Below are positions 1-45,188 of a stretch of DNA of 64,000 nucleotides, piece by piece. This DNA is from Candidatus Heimdallarchaeum endolithica. Its GTDB lineage: Archaea; Asgardarchaeota; Heimdallarchaeia; Heimdallarchaeales; Heimdallarchaeaceae. Each line of letters opens with the position of its first letter. Position 1 is the stretch's first letter. The notes under the pieces are model-generated. The model saw only the letters and a program-made list of their open reading frames with translations, was not told where the DNA came from and did not search any database. The DNA lies in assembly GCA_021513715.1 (NCBI GenBank), contig CP084167.1:2688001-2752000 (forward strand), read 5' to 3'. Both the position numbers and the translations under genes were made by a program.

Positions 1-70
1 GAGAAGGTGGGAGAAACAAAAGATGCTTACTTTTCAGCAAAACAAGGAGAATTAATATCAATAGCTCATG

Positions 71-1551
71 AATAACTTTTTTGTACAAGAATAAAAATGT
101 AGGAAGAAAAAAGAGGGGAGGAAAAAATTTAGGTTTAAATAGGAAAAAAAGATAAAATAAATGATGAAGAAGAAAGGGAGTAGAGAATGGATGGAGAAAA
201 CAGTAAGGATAACTTTACTCCCAAGTAGGAAAAAAGAAAAGTATCTAAAGGATGCGCAAAAAAAAGTAAGAGAACTAGCAAACATACTAATACCCTACAA
301 AAAAAATGTAAAAACAGGAATGGAGTTCCACCATTTAGTATACAAAAGGTTCAGATATCTAGGTCTGCACAGTCAGTTACAAGAGAATGTGCAAAGAAAG
401 GTATATGGGGCAAAAAAGGTAAAAAAGTTCAGAACCTTACCTTTGGAGTTCAACTTTCCCCGAAGTGGAAAGATAGCAAAAACAAGAAAAGACAACCCTG
501 TTTTAGTTGTTTCCCCATTGAAAAAAAGGATAGCTTTTCCTATTTGCCGAGATGGAGGGTGGAGAAGACTAAAGGAGTATACAATCAAGGGGTGGGAAGC
601 ACATAGTTGTAGAATTTTCCAACAAAAAAGGAAAAGAAAAAGGAAAGCAAAAGACCGAAAAAGAAGCAGTAAGGTCAACTATGGGTGGGTAGCACACCTG
701 AATATTAGAAAAGAACTTCCTCCTCCTCAAGAAGTAGAGGGAACAATAGGAGTAGACGTGGGAAGAAAAGTTTTTGCTGCAGTAACACTTAACCACCCCT
801 CTTTCCCTTTATTAGAGAGGTATATGGGAAAAGACATAGCTTGGAAACAACATCAGTTAGCAAAAAGAAGAAGAAAACTACAATCCTACAGAGATAAAGG
901 AAGTAAAAAGGCACGGCGTGCACTAAAAAAATTAAGAATGAAAGAAAGAAAGTATAATAAAACCCGTTGTGAGCAAATAGCTCACGAGATAGTAGATTGG
1001 GCAGTAACTACCCGTTCTGCCATAGTTATAGAAAACATAGAAGGAATAAGAAGTAAATGGAAAAAAGAAAAAACTAAAAGAAGAGGGAAGCAAAGCAAAA
1101 ATCTTCTTCGAGAGTTGAATAATTGGCCTTATGGCTTTTTCCTCTCGTTTTTGACCTCTCTCGCCTATCAACACCATATCCCAGCTGTAAAAGTTGACCC
1201 TCATTATACCAGTCAAACTTGTTCTCGATGTGGACATACTTCCAAGTCTTCACGTGTTAGTCGAGGACTTTATCGTTGTGTTGCTTGTGGTATAGAGCTC
1301 AACAGTGACCGTAACGCTTCTCGTAATATAGCCTTGAAAGGTTTCTCTTTCCTTGCTTTGCCTTTCTTTAGTTCCTGGTCTTCTTTTTATCCTTTCCCAC
1401 GTGAGAAGAAAAATAATTTTCTGGTTTCCGTGGTCGAGGAGCGCTCAACCTCCTCTTCTGGCTCAATGAGTGGTAAGTTCTTCCTCCCTCCCGGATAGAT
1501 CTTTCTCGAGAGTAAGATTGGCGTACAAAAATTTTGTACAAAAATCAAGTT
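71..1551 (+). mobile_element. Non-autonomous TnpB-only element with imperfect inverted ends
   Basis: Removing it restores the host frame. ATGAAT occurs at both junctions (68-73, 1553-1558). The ends share an inverted TTTTTGTACAA, and GTACAAAAAT is repeated at the right end (1523, 1536). Confidence 0.85.
161..1498 (+). CDS. tnpB: RNA-guided endonuclease TnpB (canonical RuvC D-E-D)
   Basis: GVDVG (RuvC-I), VIENI (RuvC-II), VDPHYTSQTCSRCG...CVACG zinc finger, DRNASRNI (RuvC-III). The true start may be the MEKTV codon. Confidence 0.93.
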   Translation: MMKKKGSREWMEKTVRITLLPSRKKEKYLKDAQKKVRELANILIPYKKNVKTGMEFHHLVYKRFRYLGLHSQLQENVQRKVYGAKKVKKFRTLPLEFNFPRSGKIAKTRKDNPVLVVSPLKKRIAFPICRDGGWRRLKEYTIKGWEAHSCRIFQQKRKRKRKAKDRKRSSKVNYGWVAHLNIRKELPPPQEVEGTIGVDVGRKVFAAVTLNHPSFPLLERYMGKDIAWKQHQLAKRRRKLQSYRDKGSKKARRALKKLRMKERKYNKTRCEQIAHEIVDWAVTTRSAIVIENIEGIRSKWKKEKTKRRGKQSKNLLRELNNWPYGFFLSFLTSLAYQHHIPAVKVDPHYTSQTCSRCGHTSKSSRVSRGLYRCVACGIELNSDRNASRNIALKGFSFLALPFFSSWSSFYPFPREKKNNFLVSVVEERSTSSSGSMSGKFFLPPG

Positions 1552-1896
1552 GATGAATGCTTTATCCTAACAATAATTGCCAAGAAAATAGATTCTAATT
1601 TGAGATCTGTGCTTTATTTGATATTACAGAAATTCTGTGAATGTATTAACTATTCAGTATTTATCTCTTCTGAAGTTCTAAAACAAGATGAGGAGGAAAA
1701 GTTTCTTATGATTCTAAAAAGTAACCTTGATGCAATATTGTATTAAAAAGAAACTCATTCTTTTTCCATTATTAAAACTAGTAAATACTAACACTCGTTA
1801 ATTGAGTACATACCTGAAAAACCTTTAAAAAATTTAAATAATTTGAACTTCTTCATAAATTAAAACAACATAATTCTTTTAAACGAATTTCTGTAT

Positions 1897-17093: not shown

Positions 17094-17812
17094 AATATAC
17101 AACCCTTTATTTTTTTCTTTCTTTTTAAAATGATAGAGCAAAATATTTAGATTACAAAATTAAAGAAATTTTATGGTTTCAATTACATTTTATGGTGCAA
17201 TCAATGAAATAGGAGGAAATAAAATACTTCTAGAAGGAGAAGAAACTAGAGTTTTTTTGGATTTTGGCTTGTGTTTTAATCGATATGGTAATTATTTTTC
17301 TCCTTATATTACTCCGCGTCAAGGACTAAAATTAAAGGATTTTATTGAGTTGAGCCTTTTACCTGATCTCGAGGGTTTATATTGACAAGATTTTGAACAG
17401 CGCTTTCGAGAGAGTGCTAAAGAGCCATTGTTCGATGGAATCGTTCTCTCACATTCACACATTGATCATGCAGGATTTATTCCATTTATACGTTCTGATA
17501 TACCTTTCTATGCTTCTGAAGGTTCATTGGCTATATTGAAGGCAATGGAACAAACTAGTTACGGATTCTACGAATTTTTAGAACTTAAAGAGAAATTCAA
17601 AATAAGAGAAAGTAAAAGAGAGAAAGGTAAATATATACGAGATAGAGATTCAAGTATTCGAAGAGAAATAGTTTCTTTAAAATCAGATTTTAAAATAGGT
17701 GAGTTTAGTTTTCATTTCTTCCCCATAGACCATTCAATTGTTGGAGCAACGGCTTATGTTATTGAAACTCAAGAAGGCTCAATAGTTTATACTGGAGATA
17801 TACGTTTTCATG

Positions 17813-19653
17813 ATTTACTTTTTGTGAAGTTTGTCGAACTTAGTCTTTCAAGAAAAAAACAAAGATAGATAATTGTTAGTTTCTTGAGAACTTAATCCTA
17901 ACATACAATGAAAGAAGAAGGATTAAGACAGACGTCATACACGAATCGGGGGAATCATAAAGAAGAAAAGAACTTTTTCTTTCTTTTCTTCACTCCACGA
18001 GAGACAAAAAAGAAAAAACTAAACCCTTGAATATAAGAGTGAATAATTCTTTTTGTCTACTGGGACTGCAACCAATGGCTGAGTCCTCGGCAAACAGTAT
18101 AATGCGTAAGACTAAACTTTTGACCAGTAAAGTAATCAGTAATAGTTGTAACACGGGGACGAAAAAGATGACTAAGGAATTTACGAGCAATATTTCTAGC
18201 TCCTGTTAAATCAGAGTGGTAAGTATAGTTACAAAAGGGACAGTGTATTAATCCTCTGACGGGACGAGAAACTTCTTTTCCACAACGGGAACAATGAGAA
18301 GATGTTCCTCTTTCGTCTATTATAAGAATACGATGAGGAGCAAAACCTCTTAATATCAATGCTCGACGGAGAAGAGAAAGAACTAAAGAAAAATTCCACT
18401 GGTGAAGTTTTCTACGAAAATAACGAGTACTTTTACCTTTCCCTTTTTCTTTTCCTTTTCTAACATTTTTGGGGTAACCTACGACGACGAAAAGGTCATA
18501 CATTTGAGCATAGGTCCCTATCGTCCGCACAACGTCGTTTATAAATTGGTGAATATAGGACTGTTTAACGTTTCTATATCTCCGACGAAGATATCCAAGA
18601 AAACGATAAATTTGGTGTTTTTTACCCGACTGGTCATTTAAAGCCGCTTTCCTCTGAAGACGGGAAAACTTGAGTTTATATCTGTGATTGATTCTATTCC
18701 ACTGTTTGGTATACCAGAATTTTATCTCTTTGCTTGTTAACTTCTTTTTGGGAGTTAGTAACACTCCTACAGCAGGAATGTTTATCCCTAGATCTATCCC
18801 CAGCACAGCTGGGGGAAGAGAAGAAGAATTATTAACTGAATAAGAAAAAGAAGAAGGAGGAAGAACTTCTAATTGAAAATACACCCACCACTCACTTGTA
18901 GAACGTTTATATCTTAATTCCAGGCTTTTCACTTGTCCTTTTTTCAATTCTTTTTGATGGAAAGTGCTCATCTCTAAAGGTAACCACAATCGTTGATGAT
19001 ACCTTGTTTTTCTTTTCCACGTGTCTAATGAGTCTCTTATTCCTACCCACCAACGAGAAATAGAGTTGTTTTTCTCTTTTGGTAAATTAGTAAGAATAAA
19101 CCTATTCTTATTGATTAGTTGTTTTCGGGGTCTCTTTTTTGGAGGACGAGTGGCTTCAGGTCTATATCCTTGCTCGTACAGTTGTACTGCTATATCTCTA
19201 CACTCTTGAAACTCATCATGAGAACAGTAAGGGAACATCTTTTTAAGGTCATGAGGAACAGTCTCTCTTCGCTCTTCTACTTTTTTTAGCCTTGATGTTG
19301 TCAATGTTAGTTCATCTAGTTTTCCTCTATGTACTCTTATTTCTCCTTTCTTTGTTTTCATACACAGTCTTCTTCTGTTGTGATGTATAATTTTTACATA
19401 TTTTCTATTATCCTTGTGTCTCTCCCTGTTATTCTCCTTAATCTTTCCTTTTTTCTCCTCGTCAAAACTTCATTTTTTATTTTTACTTTCAAAGTTTTGA
19501 CTATCTTCTCCATCTTTTTTCCTCTTCTTTTCCTTTTTTTCTTTTTCTTCTCTTCATTTATTTCTACTATTTTTTCTTATAAAAAGTCTCTTTTTTTTCT
19601 TTTTCATCCATACTCTCTATCCTAATGTTCGCAAAATTACGCAAAAAGTAAAT
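17813..19653 (-). mobile_element. Non-autonomous TnpB-only element with ~30 bp terminal inverted repeats
   Basis: CATG at both junctions (17809-17812, 19654-19657). The IRs ATTTACTTTTTGtgaagtttgtCGAACtTAG and ATTTACTTTTTGcgtaattttgCGAACatTAG share a perfect first 12 bp. Removal restores RFHGRKSD. Confidence 0.9.
18057..19513 (-). CDS. tnpB: TnpB with rearranged RuvC-II glutamate; 1-nt frameshift in the N-terminal part
   Basis: LGIDLG, VVVG(YP), IDERGTSSHCSRCG...CPFC, DLTGARNI. The upstream frame MEKIVKTLKVKI... (ATG 19513) joins the 19361 ORF if one base is added at 19401-19404. Confidence 0.88.
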
Positions 19654-23182: not shown

Positions 23183-23746
23183 GCAATTTTACACTACATT
23201 TCTTTAAAATTTTTTGGGTATCGTAAAATTTGTTGTAAGAATAATTGTATTGAAGAGTTAGTATAGTCTTTTTATAATAACCTGTTTTGCTGCTTAGGTT
23301 ATCAAGAGATTAAAGATCTATTTTCTCCTTTGAAAGACAGTGTATGAAAAAAGTACGTAAAAAAGTAAATAATAATGAATTAACGCCTTCAAAACCAAAG
23401 CATCTAGTTTTCTCTGTTTTATCTTTATTGATTTTATTCAGTAAGTTGACAGAAACTTTTCACTGAAATTTTGAATAGCAATAATAGCTTAAATAGATTA
23501 ATAGGGGAAAAATAGGTTATTCAACTAGTGACAATAGTTTCTTTTTTAAAATATTTTAAATTTTTTAAGTTATTTAATTTTGATATTTATTCCAAAATTT
23601 TAAAACCTTCAGTACGTTTTCAAATGACTTTTTTACATTTTATACTTAGTTTTTCCTATTATTTTAATTATTTTTCTATTCTAAATTAAAATCTTATTTT
23701 CTATAAAAAATTATTTTCTATATTTAATTTCTTTAAGAGTTTGAAA

Positions 23747-24560
23747 ATGCATCTAAATACACAACAAAGTAGACTATCAATAATAAAAAACAAAATATCT
23801 GACTCTTCTAAAGCTTTAGGGATAATATACATTATTATTGGTTTATCTGGATTTATTTCTTATTTATTTTTATATGCAGGTCAGCACTTTTTGTTAAATT
23901 TTTAAATCTTGATTATCTATTTGTTTCTCTTTTTTTAGTTTCTATATTTCCTATGAGTTGAAATTTTACTTAATTTCTTCAGGACTCTCCCCAACCAATC
24001 AACAAACTTAGCGAAAGTTGTGAAGACTGGCTTAAGAGAACATGAAAGACACAGTCTTAATTAAGTTCTCTAAGGGGTTCATCTCCTGATCCCGGGCACT
24101 CATAACTCCCAAAGGGAAAACCAGGTGTCGTAGGAATGAAACCTACGTCTTTAAGCATTTAGCTCAAGACACTAGATAAATGAGAATTAAATATATAAAG
24201 ATAGCTGAAAAGTTGTGACACTCCCCAATATTTTGTATTTTTTATTTAAGCAAATGTGTTTCAGGTTGTTATTGGTCTAATAACTCCACAAACTAAAAAT
24301 TTAGTTTTTACGTAAAAAAGTATCTTATGAATTAAGTAGTGATACAAAGAAGATAGGTAATACTTTTGGAATGTCTACTATGCAAAACAACTTTGTGCAA
24401 CCAACTAATTTGCAAACTGGAATCTTGATCTTTCGATTAAAGAAAAAGTTGTCTATGCGGCTAATGAGACAAAGATTGCTTTTTAGAAAAATCCATAGGC
24501 TGCAAATCCTAAATCAATGGTTTTAGAAGTAAGAGATAAAAAAATTGACCAGATAGATAA
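23747..24560 (+). pseudogene. Decayed paralog of the 44082..45188 membrane/zinc-ribbon protein, with its centre replaced by foreign DNA
   Basis: 23747-23954 reads MHLNTQQSRLSIIKNKISDSSKALGII.... 24325-24555 matches ...VYADNETKIAF...NPKSMVLEVRDKKIDQ. Both parts carry stops and frameshifts. Confidence 0.85.
23978..24175 (-). ncRNA. Candidate structured ncRNA (three-way junction + pseudoknot)
   Basis: GC-richer, ORF-free segment with several perfect stems. A TATA box (CTTTATATAT, minus strand 24200-24191) lies just upstream of the first stem. Confidence 0.5.
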
Positions 24561-24645
24561 AAAAGTATATCATTTAAATATGTTCAATTTTGATTAGAGA
24601 AGGTTTTTATTTTATTAGAACATTAGATATTTTTAGTGCATTATT

Positions 24646-25398
24646 ATGTATTCTAGTGACTCTCAAAGCAAGTTGGAAATTTCTAAACAAAAAATTTCCA
24701 AATCATCTTTAGTTTTAGGGATTTCATATATTTTCATCGGAATTATTGTTCTTACTGCCACTATACTCTTTTATCTTGGTTTTTTCGCAATTTACAATCT
24801 TTATATTTGGGATATTTACTTTGTTTCCCTTGTACTAGTTTTGTTTATTTACGCGATTATTGTAATATTCAAATCTATTTACTTTTTTAAGCTATCTCGA
24901 GGTTATGATGATTTTTCTTCAGAACTTTCTTCTCTTAGAAATTTACATATTGGTGCTGCTAAAGATGCCAGTAAATATATTAAAATAGGAACTATTTGTG
25001 AATTAATTCTTACTTTTCTCTTTCCTTTGATTGTTTTTGTAATATTGTTTTTACCTTTATTCTTTAACATATTTCTAATACCCTTTGTTTTCTTTACTTT
25101 AGGATTTATTGAGATTAGAAGTGTGTTTAGTCAATTAAGTAAACATGAGTTCTATAGTGGCAAATTTGCAAATTTTCTTTTATATTCGAGAATTAGTGTG
25201 TTTATAGCTTTTTCTTTCTATATCTATAGCGCAATTGGGTTTTTAGATGAAATGATTTCAGAGGCTTTTACTGGTACTTTCAATGATTCTTTTCTGATCT
25301 GGATATTAGTTGCTGGAATCATACTCTTTATTTCTCAAGTTCTTCTAGCAAAGGGATTCTACGATTTGAGTAAAGATACTCGTCGCATTACAATATAA
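24646..25398 (+). CDS. Multi-pass membrane protein (paralog family with 25524 and 44082)
   Basis: About 6 TM; shared ISKSS.VLG, FFKL..G..D.S.EL, N.LLYSR and DSFLIW motifs. Confidence 0.8.
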   Translation: MYSSDSQSKLEISKQKISKSSLVLGISYIFIGIIVLTATILFYLGFFAIYNLYIWDIYFVSLVLVLFIYAIIVIFKSIYFFKLSRGYDDFSSELSSLRNLHIGAAKDASKYIKIGTICELILTFLFPLIVFVILFLPLFFNIFLIPFVFFTLGFIEIRSVFSQLSKHEFYSGKFANFLLYSRISVFIAFSFYIYSAIGFLDEMISEAFTGTFNDSFLIWILVAGIILFISQVLLAKGFYDLSKDTRRITI

Positions 25399-25523
25399 AA
25401 TAGCTAAAAATTCTTGGAACTATCTCCCTATAGATTATTTTTTTTAATTTAGCAATTCTTACAGACCGTGTGTTTAATTTAAAAAACTTTTAATTCTAGT
25501 ATGTCTCTTCAGTTATAATTAAA

Positions 25524-26489
25524 ATGCAAAACAATTTTGGATTTGTTAAACTAGAATTTATTACGCAAGAGATCTCCAAAACATCAAAGGTTTTAAGTAG
25601 TATTCAATTATTTATAGGATTACCCATCATTACTTTTTATATGAAGTTATATCTTGATTTTTCATCCTTTATAGGAGACTCTATTGATATATCACTAAAA
25701 ATCATACCTTTTTTCTTTCTAATTATTCTTCCTTTAGCCCTTTATGTAGTTAGAATCTTATACATTTTTAAGCTTGCAAATAGTTTTACAGAACTTTCAA
25801 AATTATTTTATTACGACCCTGCTTTTCAAAGAAATAGAATTAAATCTGTTAGTAAATTTATAAGATTAGGAATGATTAGTGAAATTATAACTATAGTAAT
25901 TTCACCTATTCTGTTTGTAATTATATTTTTCGTATCTGTTTTTCTCTCATCAATTATATTCTTTTTACCAAATATTTTCTTCCTGATTGGATTTTTAGGA
26001 ATATCTAAAACTTTTGACCAATTAAAAGAAATAAATCTATACAAGGGTAAGTTTAGAAATTGGCTGTTATATTCCCAAATTAGTTTTATTATCACCTCAA
26101 TGTTAAGCATGTATGGTGGGGGTAAAATGTGGTCATCTATATTGATTTGGGGATTATCAGGAGAAGAAGTTCTAGATGACTCTTTTCTAATTTGGTTTTT
26201 AATAGCTGGAATTTTAGTTTCTTTAGGTTATCTTCTAAATACTATAGGTTTTTTTAAGTTAGGTATAGAAATGAGAAAAATTCACATATCTAACGAAAAT
26301 TCAGATTTTGTAAAGAGTAGAATAAATACAATTAATCCACAAAAAGTTGAAAATCAACTATCAGAGCCTTTAATTGTTAAAAACAACATTCAAGCAAAAA
26401 CATCCAAGTCTAAATATTGCCCAAATTGTGGCGCAATAAACGATTATGATGCAGTATTTTGTACTAATTGTGGTGCAAGTTTTGAATAA
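25524..26489 (+). CDS. Multi-pass membrane protein with C-terminal double zinc ribbon
   Basis: Same family; ends KYCPNCG..ND.DA.FCTNCG. Confidence 0.85.
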   Translation: MQNNFGFVKLEFITQEISKTSKVLSSIQLFIGLPIITFYMKLYLDFSSFIGDSIDISLKIIPFFFLIILPLALYVVRILYIFKLANSFTELSKLFYYDPAFQRNRIKSVSKFIRLGMISEIITIVISPILFVIIFFVSVFLSSIIFFLPNIFFLIGFLGISKTFDQLKEINLYKGKFRNWLLYSQISFIITSMLSMYGGGKMWSSILIWGLSGEEVLDDSFLIWFLIAGILVSLGYLLNTIGFFKLGIEMRKIHISNENSDFVKSRINTINPQKVENQLSEPLIVKNNIQAKTSKSKYCPNCGAINDYDAVFCTNCGASFE

Positions 26490-44081: not shown

Positions 44082-45188
44082 TTATTGATTTACAAAGGAT
44101 TTTCCACAATTAGAACAAAATCTAGCATCTATATCATTTTGAAAACCACAATTAGGACAATATTTGAATAATGGACGGTTAGGTATAGCATTTCTATAAG
44201 TATTTCTTTTAGCATTTAGAGGATTAACCTGGTCAATTTTTTTATCCCTTACCTCTAAAACCATTGATTTAGGATTTCCGGAAGCTGGATTTTTCTTAAA
44301 AGCAATCTTTGTCTCATTATCCGCATAGACAACTTCTTCTGACATAGATGGGTTTAAGTTTCCAGTTCGCAAATTAGTTGGATGAACAAAACTGTTTTGC
44401 ATACCAGCAGTTCCACCAGTAAAACCTATCTTCTTTGCATCATTACTTAAAGCATAAAAACCACCAACAAAGAAAATATAGCCCAAAAGAGCAGAAATAC
44501 TGGCAATTAAAAACCAAATCAAGAATGAGGTATCGAAATAACCAGTTAAAAGACCTTCAGAAATAGCACTTGTCATTTTAATTGTTCCAAAAACGCTAGA
44601 GAAAACAGAAACAATAATAATGTATCGAGAATATAAAAGCCAATTAGTAAACTGGTCATAGAAAAGATTCATTTGTTGCAATTGATCAAAGGTAGAAGAA
44701 AGAACTTTAAAACCTAAAGTAAGAAAAATAAAAGGAAGAAGAATTAATATTAGTAAAATAAAGCTAAAAGACGGTAAAAAGAAAAGCAGAAGAAATAGAA
44801 AAGGAGAAATAAAAGCTATAATCATCTCAGAAAACATACTCACTTTAATGTATTTGCTTACATCTTTAGCAGAATTAGTATGAAAATTGTAGTAAAAAGA
44901 AAGCTCTGTAGAAAGATCATTAAAACCACCTGCAAGCTTGAAAAAAAAGATATAGCGAAAGATAACAAGAACAATAGAAAAAATAGAAACTAAAAAAAGA
45001 GAAACAAGAAAATAATCAAAATTTAAAAATTTAATAAAAAGAGAAAAACCTGTATATAAAAACAAATAAGAAATAAATTCCGATAAGGCAATAATAATAT
45101 AAATTATCCCTAAAGCTTTAGAAGAGCTAGCTATTTTGTTTTTTATTATCGATAGTCTGCTTTGAGCTGTGTTTTGATGCATTTTCAA
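44082..45188 (-). CDS. Multi-pass membrane protein with C-terminal double zinc ribbon
   Basis: Paralog of 24646 and 25524; ends KYCPNCG..ND.DA.FCSNCG. Confidence 0.85.
   Translation of the reverse strand: MKMHQNTAQSRLSIIKNKIASSSKALGIIYIIIALSEFISYLFLYTGFSLFIKFLNFDYFLVSLFLVSIFSIVLVIFRYIFFFKLAGGFNDLSTELSFYYNFHTNSAKDVSKYIKVSMFSEMIIAFISPFLFLLLFFLPSFSFILLILILLPFIFLTLGFKVLSSTFDQLQQMNLFYDQFTNWLLYSRYIIIVSVFSSVFGTIKMTSAISEGLLTGYFDTSFLIWFLIASISALLGYIFFVGGFYALSNDAKKIGFTGGTAGMQNSFVHPTNLRTGNLNPSMSEEVVYADNETKIAFKKNPASGNPKSMVLEVRDKKIDQVNPLNAKRNTYRNAIPNRPLFKYCPNCGFQNDIDARFCSNCGKSFVNQ

Follow-up and report, generated by a model that had tools for sequence, protein, structure and literature searches.

A 377-base insert (window 23953-24329, sense on the minus strand) in the genome of Candidatus Heimdallarchaeum endolithica is very probably a non-autonomous, protein-less derivative of a TnpB-type insertion sequence (IS200/IS605-like, tnpB-only), similar to a PATE or a MITE. 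The window is the whole stretch of 64,000 nucleotides that was analysed (contig CP084167.1, positions 2,688,001 to 2,752,000). Sequence comparison identifies the insert as a TnpB-less element with an omega-RNA scaffold; homology and compensatory changes shared with the RNA located 3' of TnpB genes support the first option of the original prediction, a mobile-element-derived orphan or trans-acting omega RNA.

The insert and the disrupted membrane-protein gene

The bounds of the insert were obtained by alignment of 16 copies with their flanks and refine those given by the original prediction (23955-24325), which had correctly placed foreign DNA in the centre of a membrane-protein gene: the two flanks are the two ends of one paralogue. 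The intact reference paralogue encodes a 368-aa zinc-ribbon membrane protein (window 44082-45188, minus strand). Window 23803-23954 shows 87% DNA identity with 44974-45126, and window 24325-24495 shows 82% with 44286-44457; by eye, the residues of the 3' fragment correspond to paralogue positions from approximately 246 onward. Approximately 524 bp of the zinc-ribbon membrane-protein gene are absent between the two flanking fragments. In this membrane-protein family the zinc ribbon is the sole Pfam match, and it is C-terminal and found in some members. The disrupted copy belongs to a paralogous family of multi-pass membrane proteins and stands in tandem with its members at 24646-25398 and 25524-26489 over window 23741-26489; the gene at 44082-45188 is a further member.

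GC content is low in the window (about 25-30%) and rises locally at 23900-24200. An ORF search found no reading frame of at least 40 aa within the insert, as had been predicted, and an ARAGORN scan of the insert found neither tRNA nor tmRNA. Coordinates of all features are shown in Table 1.

Table 1. Features of the element and of the gene it interrupts (window coordinates).
Feature	Position	Strand	Remarks
Element body, left end to right end	23953..24326	-	374 bp, without ORF; 16 copies with 87-97% identity
Left-junction CAT triplet, a target or TAM-like motif	24327..24329	-	Last two bases, AT, are the duplicated core under the 2-bp model
Left end: 7 nt, then T-run/ACGT/A-run palindrome	24300..24326	-	Design common to resident TnpB elements
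TATA box TTTATATA	24192-24199	-	Precedes the first RNA hairpin by about 20 nt
RNA 5' domain	24085..24173	-	Predicted fold: two hairpins (a, b), and stem c around hairpin d
Hairpin a	24147-24170	-	Predicted fold; aligned with the 3' end of the relatives' tnpB
Hairpin b	24130-24146	-	Predicted fold; a hairpin of different sequence at the same place in relatives (by eye)
Stem c, around hairpin d (24106-24118)	24121-24125 with 24091-24095	-	Predicted fold
RNA 3' domain, helices P1 to P7, omega-RNA scaffold	23960..24091	-	Model R1 gives 169.7 bits on the window copy
P1	24084-24089 with 23979-23984	-	Terminal hairpin P7 at 23960-23977
Right-end terminus AACTCAT, element stops after CAT	23953..23959	-	Invariant in almost all copies
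Predicted guide, flank added by right-end read-through	23933..23952	-	Proposed from the example of TnpB omega RNAs
Disrupted membrane-protein gene, 5' fragment	23741..23952	+	About 70 codons; matches the start of the intact paralogue
Decayed 3' fragment of the same gene	24330..~24560	+	Frameshifts and stops

Copy number and recent mobility of the repeat family

The element does not stand alone: it is one of about 18 full copies in the genome. The single contig of 3.33 Mb contains 16 copies at 87-97% identity, two divergent full copies at approximately 83%, and about seven partial copies: one left-end fragment and six right-end fragments. The sister genome of Ca. Heimdallarchaeum aukensis PM71 (CP084166) shows seven full copies and four fragments, and seven metagenomic contigs show one copy each, with no TnpB nearby. 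Every copy in the genome, the sister genome and the metagenomic contigs is ORF-less. The family therefore shows the features of a PATE in having no protein-coding gene (no ORF of at least 40 aa) and in being multi-copy (18 full copies plus fragments). A DNA search with the whole repeat in 39 other relatives found matches in the sister species only. No TnpB-bearing parent of the repeat was found in the genomes or metagenomes searched, neither a transposase nor TnpB adjoins the partial copies, which were screened for a parent element, and no TnpB, Y1 TnpA or resolvase domain adjoins the copies examined.

One site filled in the sister genome is empty here, and the reverse case was also found; both filled/empty pairs are precise, and the element is recently mobile.

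Rearrangements are found beside copies at two loci compared with the sister genome (L015, genome 2920501-2923878; L013, genome 1838692-1842068) and beside the window copy. One rearranged copy shows a 1.3-kb deletion and a 326-bp inversion within a long FAD/Fe-S oxidoreductase gene, another shows an inversion of approximately 800 bp, and the window copy shows the 524-bp loss. At L015 and L013 the rearrangement is on the left-end side of the element, and the guide side is collinear. Furthermore, at least three other families of short dispersed repeats (about 110-130 bp, 225 bp and 98 bp), with 20-40 genome copies each, were met in the flanks of the copies at genome 1687377 and 699141.

Three right-end fragments of approximately 93 nt (genome 1375194-1375285 and 1184269-1184362, and sister genome 2223887-2223979) begin exactly at the internal ...TTCAT^G of the element (^ marks a junction). 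From their sequence, it looks as if the internal CAT was used as a cleavage or junction site.

Ends, junctions and target motif

In sense orientation, each copy reads ...CAT^G/A-AGATAC-TTTTTTACGTAAAAAA......GAAATTACGTAAAATTTC-AACTCAT^G..., and the two ends of the repeat read as imperfect inverted repeats of each other. The CAT of the left junction is found in all 16 near-identical copies and in six resident TnpB elements, and the motif is present once at each of the two empty sites. The right terminus also ends the TnpB-linked homologues in other genera, whose flanks diverge directly after it. The left end of the resident TnpB elements shows CAT^G, 7 nt and TTTTTTACGTAA, and their right end shows ACGTAAAA...TCAT^; the repeat has the same design, so that its ends are common to protein-coding elements of the same genome, as in PATEs. 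Insertion sites are diverse: all share only the CAT at the left, often with a G at the right.

One filled/empty pair permits at most two repeated bases (AT), which excludes a target duplication of 3 or 4 bp, and these two possibilities were rejected. Both pairs fit either no duplication (target ...AT, element end ...CAT) or a 2-bp duplication of AT. The base preceding CAT is T in only one of the 16 copies, and the right end of the element itself is TCAT; this rarity would fit a discrimination between target and right end. Since both ends contain ACGT-centred palindromes, direct and inverted likeness of the ends look the same; among related elements from another genus, each end is the inverted repeat of the other and does not form a hairpin with itself.

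RNA fold and covariation

The minus strand of the insert folds at -69.4 kcal/mol, compared with -54.3 +/- 4.2 in dinucleotide shuffles (z -3.58, none of 200 as good), and so exceeds shuffled controls, a condition that the original prediction had set for itself; the plus strand gives a z of -2.6. The helices that it had named (GTGTC/GACAC, TTGAGC/GCTTAA, GTAGG/CCTAC, CCTGG/CCGGG and TCCC/GGGA) exist in the sequence, as do the two pairings of its H-type pseudoknot, GAGAAC/GTTCTC (24065-70 with 24036-41) and AAGACTG/CAGTCTT (24052-58 with 24023-29). The pseudoknot itself is not favoured, however, because its helix competes with the nested helices P4 and P5, which covary: across TnpB-linked homologues, double changes are found in three of the four pairs of P4 and in all six pairs of P5. 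The pairing 24052-58/24023-29 is kept in 89.6% among the copies, with one of its pairs broken in 10 of 21, and may be an alternative conformer. The proposed three-way junction receives no backing from covariation either: by eye, its closing helix GTGTC/GACAC is without counterpart in the TnpB-linked homologues, where hairpin a instead retains its GUCU/AGAC base.

With fragments kept in the alignment, RNAalifold retained no more than two helices, and a hand-drawn structure with pair counts was used instead. Among the ORF-less copies, 91% of cells are paired, compared with approximately 52% when the structure is slid along the alignment, and these copies alone show 14 double-change cells compared with 4.9 in shuffles (0 of 500 as high), for example AGAC/GUCU changed to AAAU/AUUU. 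Since divergent copies have such compensatory changes, a covariance model, R1, was built from the 3' 139 nt of 26 aligned copies with the nested structure P1 to P7 written by hand.

In a joint alignment with the homologues that R1 recovered (see below), both sides are changed in 32 of 38 pairs, and 87.6% of cells are paired compared with 62.5% in shuffles and at most 48% when slid, counts that are somewhat inflated because this alignment was fitted to R1. The covariation score is 0.48 compared with 0.15 in shuffles (0 of 500). P1 changes from UCAGGA/UCCUGA in the repeat to UGAGGA/UCCUCA in the homologues, P3 from AGAGAAC/GUUCUCU to CACCUCC/GGAGGUG, and P4 from AGAC/GUCU to ACAC/GUGU. A secondary structure conserved with covariation, as expected of an omega RNA, is therefore found in the model-fitted joint alignment and also in the ORF-less copies alone. 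No family of Rfam 15 matched at gathering or permissive thresholds, none with E below 0.8; since Rfam holds only families already described and curated, this negative result is weak evidence.

Homology to TnpB-linked RNAs

Beyond the genus Heimdallarchaeum, 10 genomes of the same family gave R1 matches, at 29-50 bits. Upstream DNA of at least 1.4 kb was present at 20 of the loci from outside this genus: 10 show a full TnpB of approximately 487 aa, one a truncated TnpB, and nine none. In the 10 loci with a full TnpB, its gene ends about 44 nt upstream of the R1 motif on the same strand, and all 20 loci terminate at ...AACTCAT^, followed by unrelated flanks. The homologues thus occupy the position of omega RNAs, 3' of a same-strand tnpB and stopping at the right-end boundary, and the window copy is without tnpB. 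The proteins of about 487 aa match the TNB domain (TnpB/Cas12f1-like) of Pfam above the cut-off, and match the NCBIfam model guided_TnpB over nearly its full length, below the curated cut-off. A phmmer search with a resident TnpB against PDB sequences gave spurious zinc-finger matches only.

When its filters are disabled, the R1 search further gives hits at 13 TnpB loci among those examined in this genome; their scores are 18-39 bits, compared with 170 bits for the repeat. An nhmmer search with the repeat found no similarity to the 3' regions of resident TnpB genes, which only the covariance model reached. Position and ends were checked in one resident locus, L028, where the R1 match begins approximately 115 nt after the TnpB stop; its left end is CAT^GCTTCTA-TTTTTTACGTAA and its right end CTTTACGTAAAAAAG-TAAATCAT^, a design as in the repeat. 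The 12 full-length resident TnpBs of this class show 39-43% identity to the TnpB that carries the nearest RNA homologue, and no close TnpB partner for the repeat was found among them.

In the relatives, the sequence aligned with hairpin a is that of the last 30 or so TnpB codons (...PVLSQWLQTK...), and it has AGCC/GGCU in place of GAGC/GCUU; this argues that the scaffold overlaps the tnpB 3' end, a trait of omega RNAs. A model restricted to the 5' domain (R2) missed the relatives, and firm homology in this domain is therefore limited to hairpin a. From these alignments, the 5' domain is probably what is left of the 3' end of a tnpB coding region.

Two TnpB elements are located in the same window. 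The first (approximately 17810-19406, minus strand) encodes a TnpB of about 470 aa of the class discussed and shows a weak R1 match (23 bits, approximately 17810-17947); the second (approximately 67-1555, plus strand) encodes a 445-aa TnpB of IS605-OrfB type. By eye, the TnpBs of about 487 aa (L028 1355-2815, L060 1717-3180) show the motifs GIDLG and (N/H)(A/S)D, and VVVG(F/Y)P at the usual place of the RuvC-II glutamate. Their RuvC-II acidic residue may, from the sequence, be relocated, as occurs in some TnpB and Fanzor lineages.

The position of these homologues bears on two other readings of the structure. The first is that the conserved structure is a right-end single-stranded DNA fold recognised by the mobilising enzyme and not an RNA. 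The ends do contain ACGT-centred palindromes, as in elements moved as single strands, and a G-T wobble is workable in DNA too; however, approximately 215 nt are folded, far beyond known end hairpins, a promoter stands in front of the folded region, and the homologues are located where TnpB omega RNAs are. This reading is very improbable.

The second would make the RNA the guide of another recombinase (an IS110/IS1111 bridge or seek RNA), a retroelement leader or a self-cleaving ribozyme, all of which were among the remaining options of the original prediction, and it deserves hardly any credence. An ORF-less structured RNA, a 2-base repeat (AT) at both junctions, and several fragments that retain the 3' end only would suit it. 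Against a bridge RNA, which has a long specific target, sites here are diverse beyond CAT; no DEDD recombinase gene was seen beside copies or homologues, and the neighbouring gene, where present, is TnpB. Neither of the marks of IS110/IS1111, an adjoining DEDD gene and one long specific target, was therefore seen. Reverse transcriptase, like TnpB, Y1 TnpA and the resolvase domain, was not seen adjoining the copies examined, which together with the empty Rfam result speaks against a retroelement leader or a new ribozyme; the exact start of the three 3'-end fragments at the internal CAT^G fits end-motif cleavage instead of reverse transcription, and the RNA is homologous to TnpB-linked RNAs.

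Promoter and proposed origin of the element

The TATA box predicted on the minus strand ahead of the RNA is present, and both the box and its spacing are conserved in all copies, including the divergent ones at approximately 83% identity. Its position would place the start of transcription near 24173. In the original prediction this was an orphan promoter; the promoter element stands, and its orphan status probably does not, since it is likely to be the tnpB promoter of a parent element, brought up against the RNA when the ORF was lost. This reading is drawn by analogy from an ORF-less element of another genus (L064), in which the left end and TATA region of a full element run straight into the RNA; the join falls where the full element proceeds to the tnpB start codon. 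An internal deletion would have removed the tnpB reading frame from a parent TnpB-type element and kept the left end, the TATA box, the omega-RNA scaffold and the right end; the scaffold of approximately 215 nt would include roughly the last 85 nt of the former coding sequence.

The element could instead be an inert relic, whose scaffold is a leftover of the deletion and which spread through its ends only, its RNA neither made nor used. Neither a cognate TnpB nor a TnpB-bearing parent was found, P1 contains an A.G mismatch in eight of 20 copies, and the window copy lies in a dead gene beside a deletion, all of which would be expected of a relic. However, the TATA box and its spacing are retained in copies that share only about 83% identity, compensatory changes are found inside the ORF-less family (AGAC/GUCU to AAAU/AUUU), and ORF-less elements composed of promoter and RNA recur in other genera. 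We therefore regard an inert relic as unlikely.

Mobilising enzyme

The only Y1 TnpA of the genome (925129-925479) has no in-frame start before the conserved N-terminal strand. No Y1 TnpA was found in the complete sister genome, which also carries copies, or in the 25 genomes of genus g4, eight of which show R1 RNA matches. A Y1 (HUH) TnpA usable in trans, as a PATE would have, was thus found neither in the genome nor in the sister genome or genus g4. This only Y1 tnpA belongs to locus L029 (genome 922500-927500, minus strand), where it lies no more than 30 nt downstream of a divergent copy, and it shows an out-of-frame ATGATG just upstream; downstream of it is a 403-aa IS605-type tnpB with its own GC-rich 3' hairpin.

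The IS607 family is also TnpB-bearing and loose in target choice, and a 2-base core at both junctions and in the target would fit a serine recombinase; however, no IS607-type TnpA is found beside any copy. Each Heimdallarchaeum genome has two unlinked resolvase-domain genes, at least one with a catalytic serine near the N terminus. An element-encoded serine-recombinase TnpA, with the HTH first and the catalytic domain after, was thus not found. As read from sequence, the ends, with their inverted repeats and AT/CAT junction, are not a clean fit to either IS605 or IS607. It is conceivable, though doubtful, that in these Asgard archaea the guide-RNA cassettes and tnpB-only elements are moved by a non-Y1 enzyme, either a recombinase that acts on AT-core, inverted-repeat ends or a route that depends on TnpB, and that the cassettes spread new guides for resident TnpBs.

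Proposed working and predicted guide

By analogy with TnpB omega RNAs, we infer that the element is transcribed, captures a guide, is used by a resident TnpB and has a role in homing. The transcript would start near 24173, cross the scaffold and the right end, and enter the flanking DNA, whose first 16-20 bases or so would become the guide. A TnpB made elsewhere in the genome would load the cassette RNA and, after any excision of the element, would cut the empty site (CAT-type motif plus flank), and repair from the sister chromosome would restore the element. Homing by TnpB cutting of the vacated site and repair has been demonstrated for bacterial IS605 elements (PMC10055086).

No second CAT-adjacent genomic target with two or fewer mismatches was found for the flank-derived guide of any copy, which fits homing rather than gene regulation. 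A 16-mer close to the flank of the copy at 1237433 has 196 near-matches genome-wide and recurs every 76 bp or so at genome 1049610-1049840 onward; it looks like a CRISPR array or another tandem repeat.

Comparison with known systems

A TnpB-less omega-RNA element is of a kind already known from bacteria, the PATE-like IS200/IS605 derivatives of Geobacillus stearothermophilus (Meers et al. 2023, PMC10055086). These are likewise protein-less and multi-copy, with ends common to TnpB elements of the same genome and an omega-RNA scaffold beside the right end. According to Meers et al., PATEs often encode omega RNAs that need TnpB from other elements in trans (PMC10055086), and since the element described here is also without a coding gene, any use of its scaffold requires TnpB in trans. 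In contrast to those derivatives, the host here is an Asgard archaeon and an archaeal TATA box is located directly ahead of the RNA; no working Y1 TnpA and no close TnpB partner are evident; and the ends read as inverted repeats with a common AT/CAT junction.

In ISDra2 and other IS605-family elements, the right-end (omega) RNA scaffold is likewise located at or overlapping the tnpB 3' end and stops at the right-end boundary, a flank-derived guide is likewise expected, and a short motif adjoins the left end. The TnpBs here differ in being approximately 487 aa and very divergent, below the NCBIfam cut-off and without a sequence match in PDB, and the scaffold of about 215 nt has its own architecture and no Rfam model, with an adjoining motif of only 3-4 nt or so (CAT). 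For OMEGA systems, Altae-Tran et al. are said to have described in 2021 stand-alone omega RNAs that have no nuclease gene beside them and presumably act in trans; the RNA here differs from those in that it lies within a defined mobile unit with both ends, for which recent transposition was demonstrated.

Significance for Heimdallarchaeia

The paper that reports both closed Heimdallarchaeum genomes mentions abundant non-tandem repeats and transposase families, and makes no mention of TnpB, IS200/IS605 or MITEs (PMC8813620); a 2026 survey of archaeal IS does not describe the element. What was a puzzling island of promoter and structured RNA is explained as a TnpB guide-RNA cassette, and a very divergent Asgard TnpB lineage of about 487 aa gains an omega-RNA structure with covariance support. 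Heimdallarchaeia are the archaea closest to eukaryotes. Wider interest may lie in which TnpB, if any, uses the cassette RNAs, and in what mobilises elements in genomes that lack a usable Y1 transposase. In Heimdallarchaeia, elements that carry only a guide are common and have moved recently, and tnpB is absent at approximately half of the homologous RNA loci.
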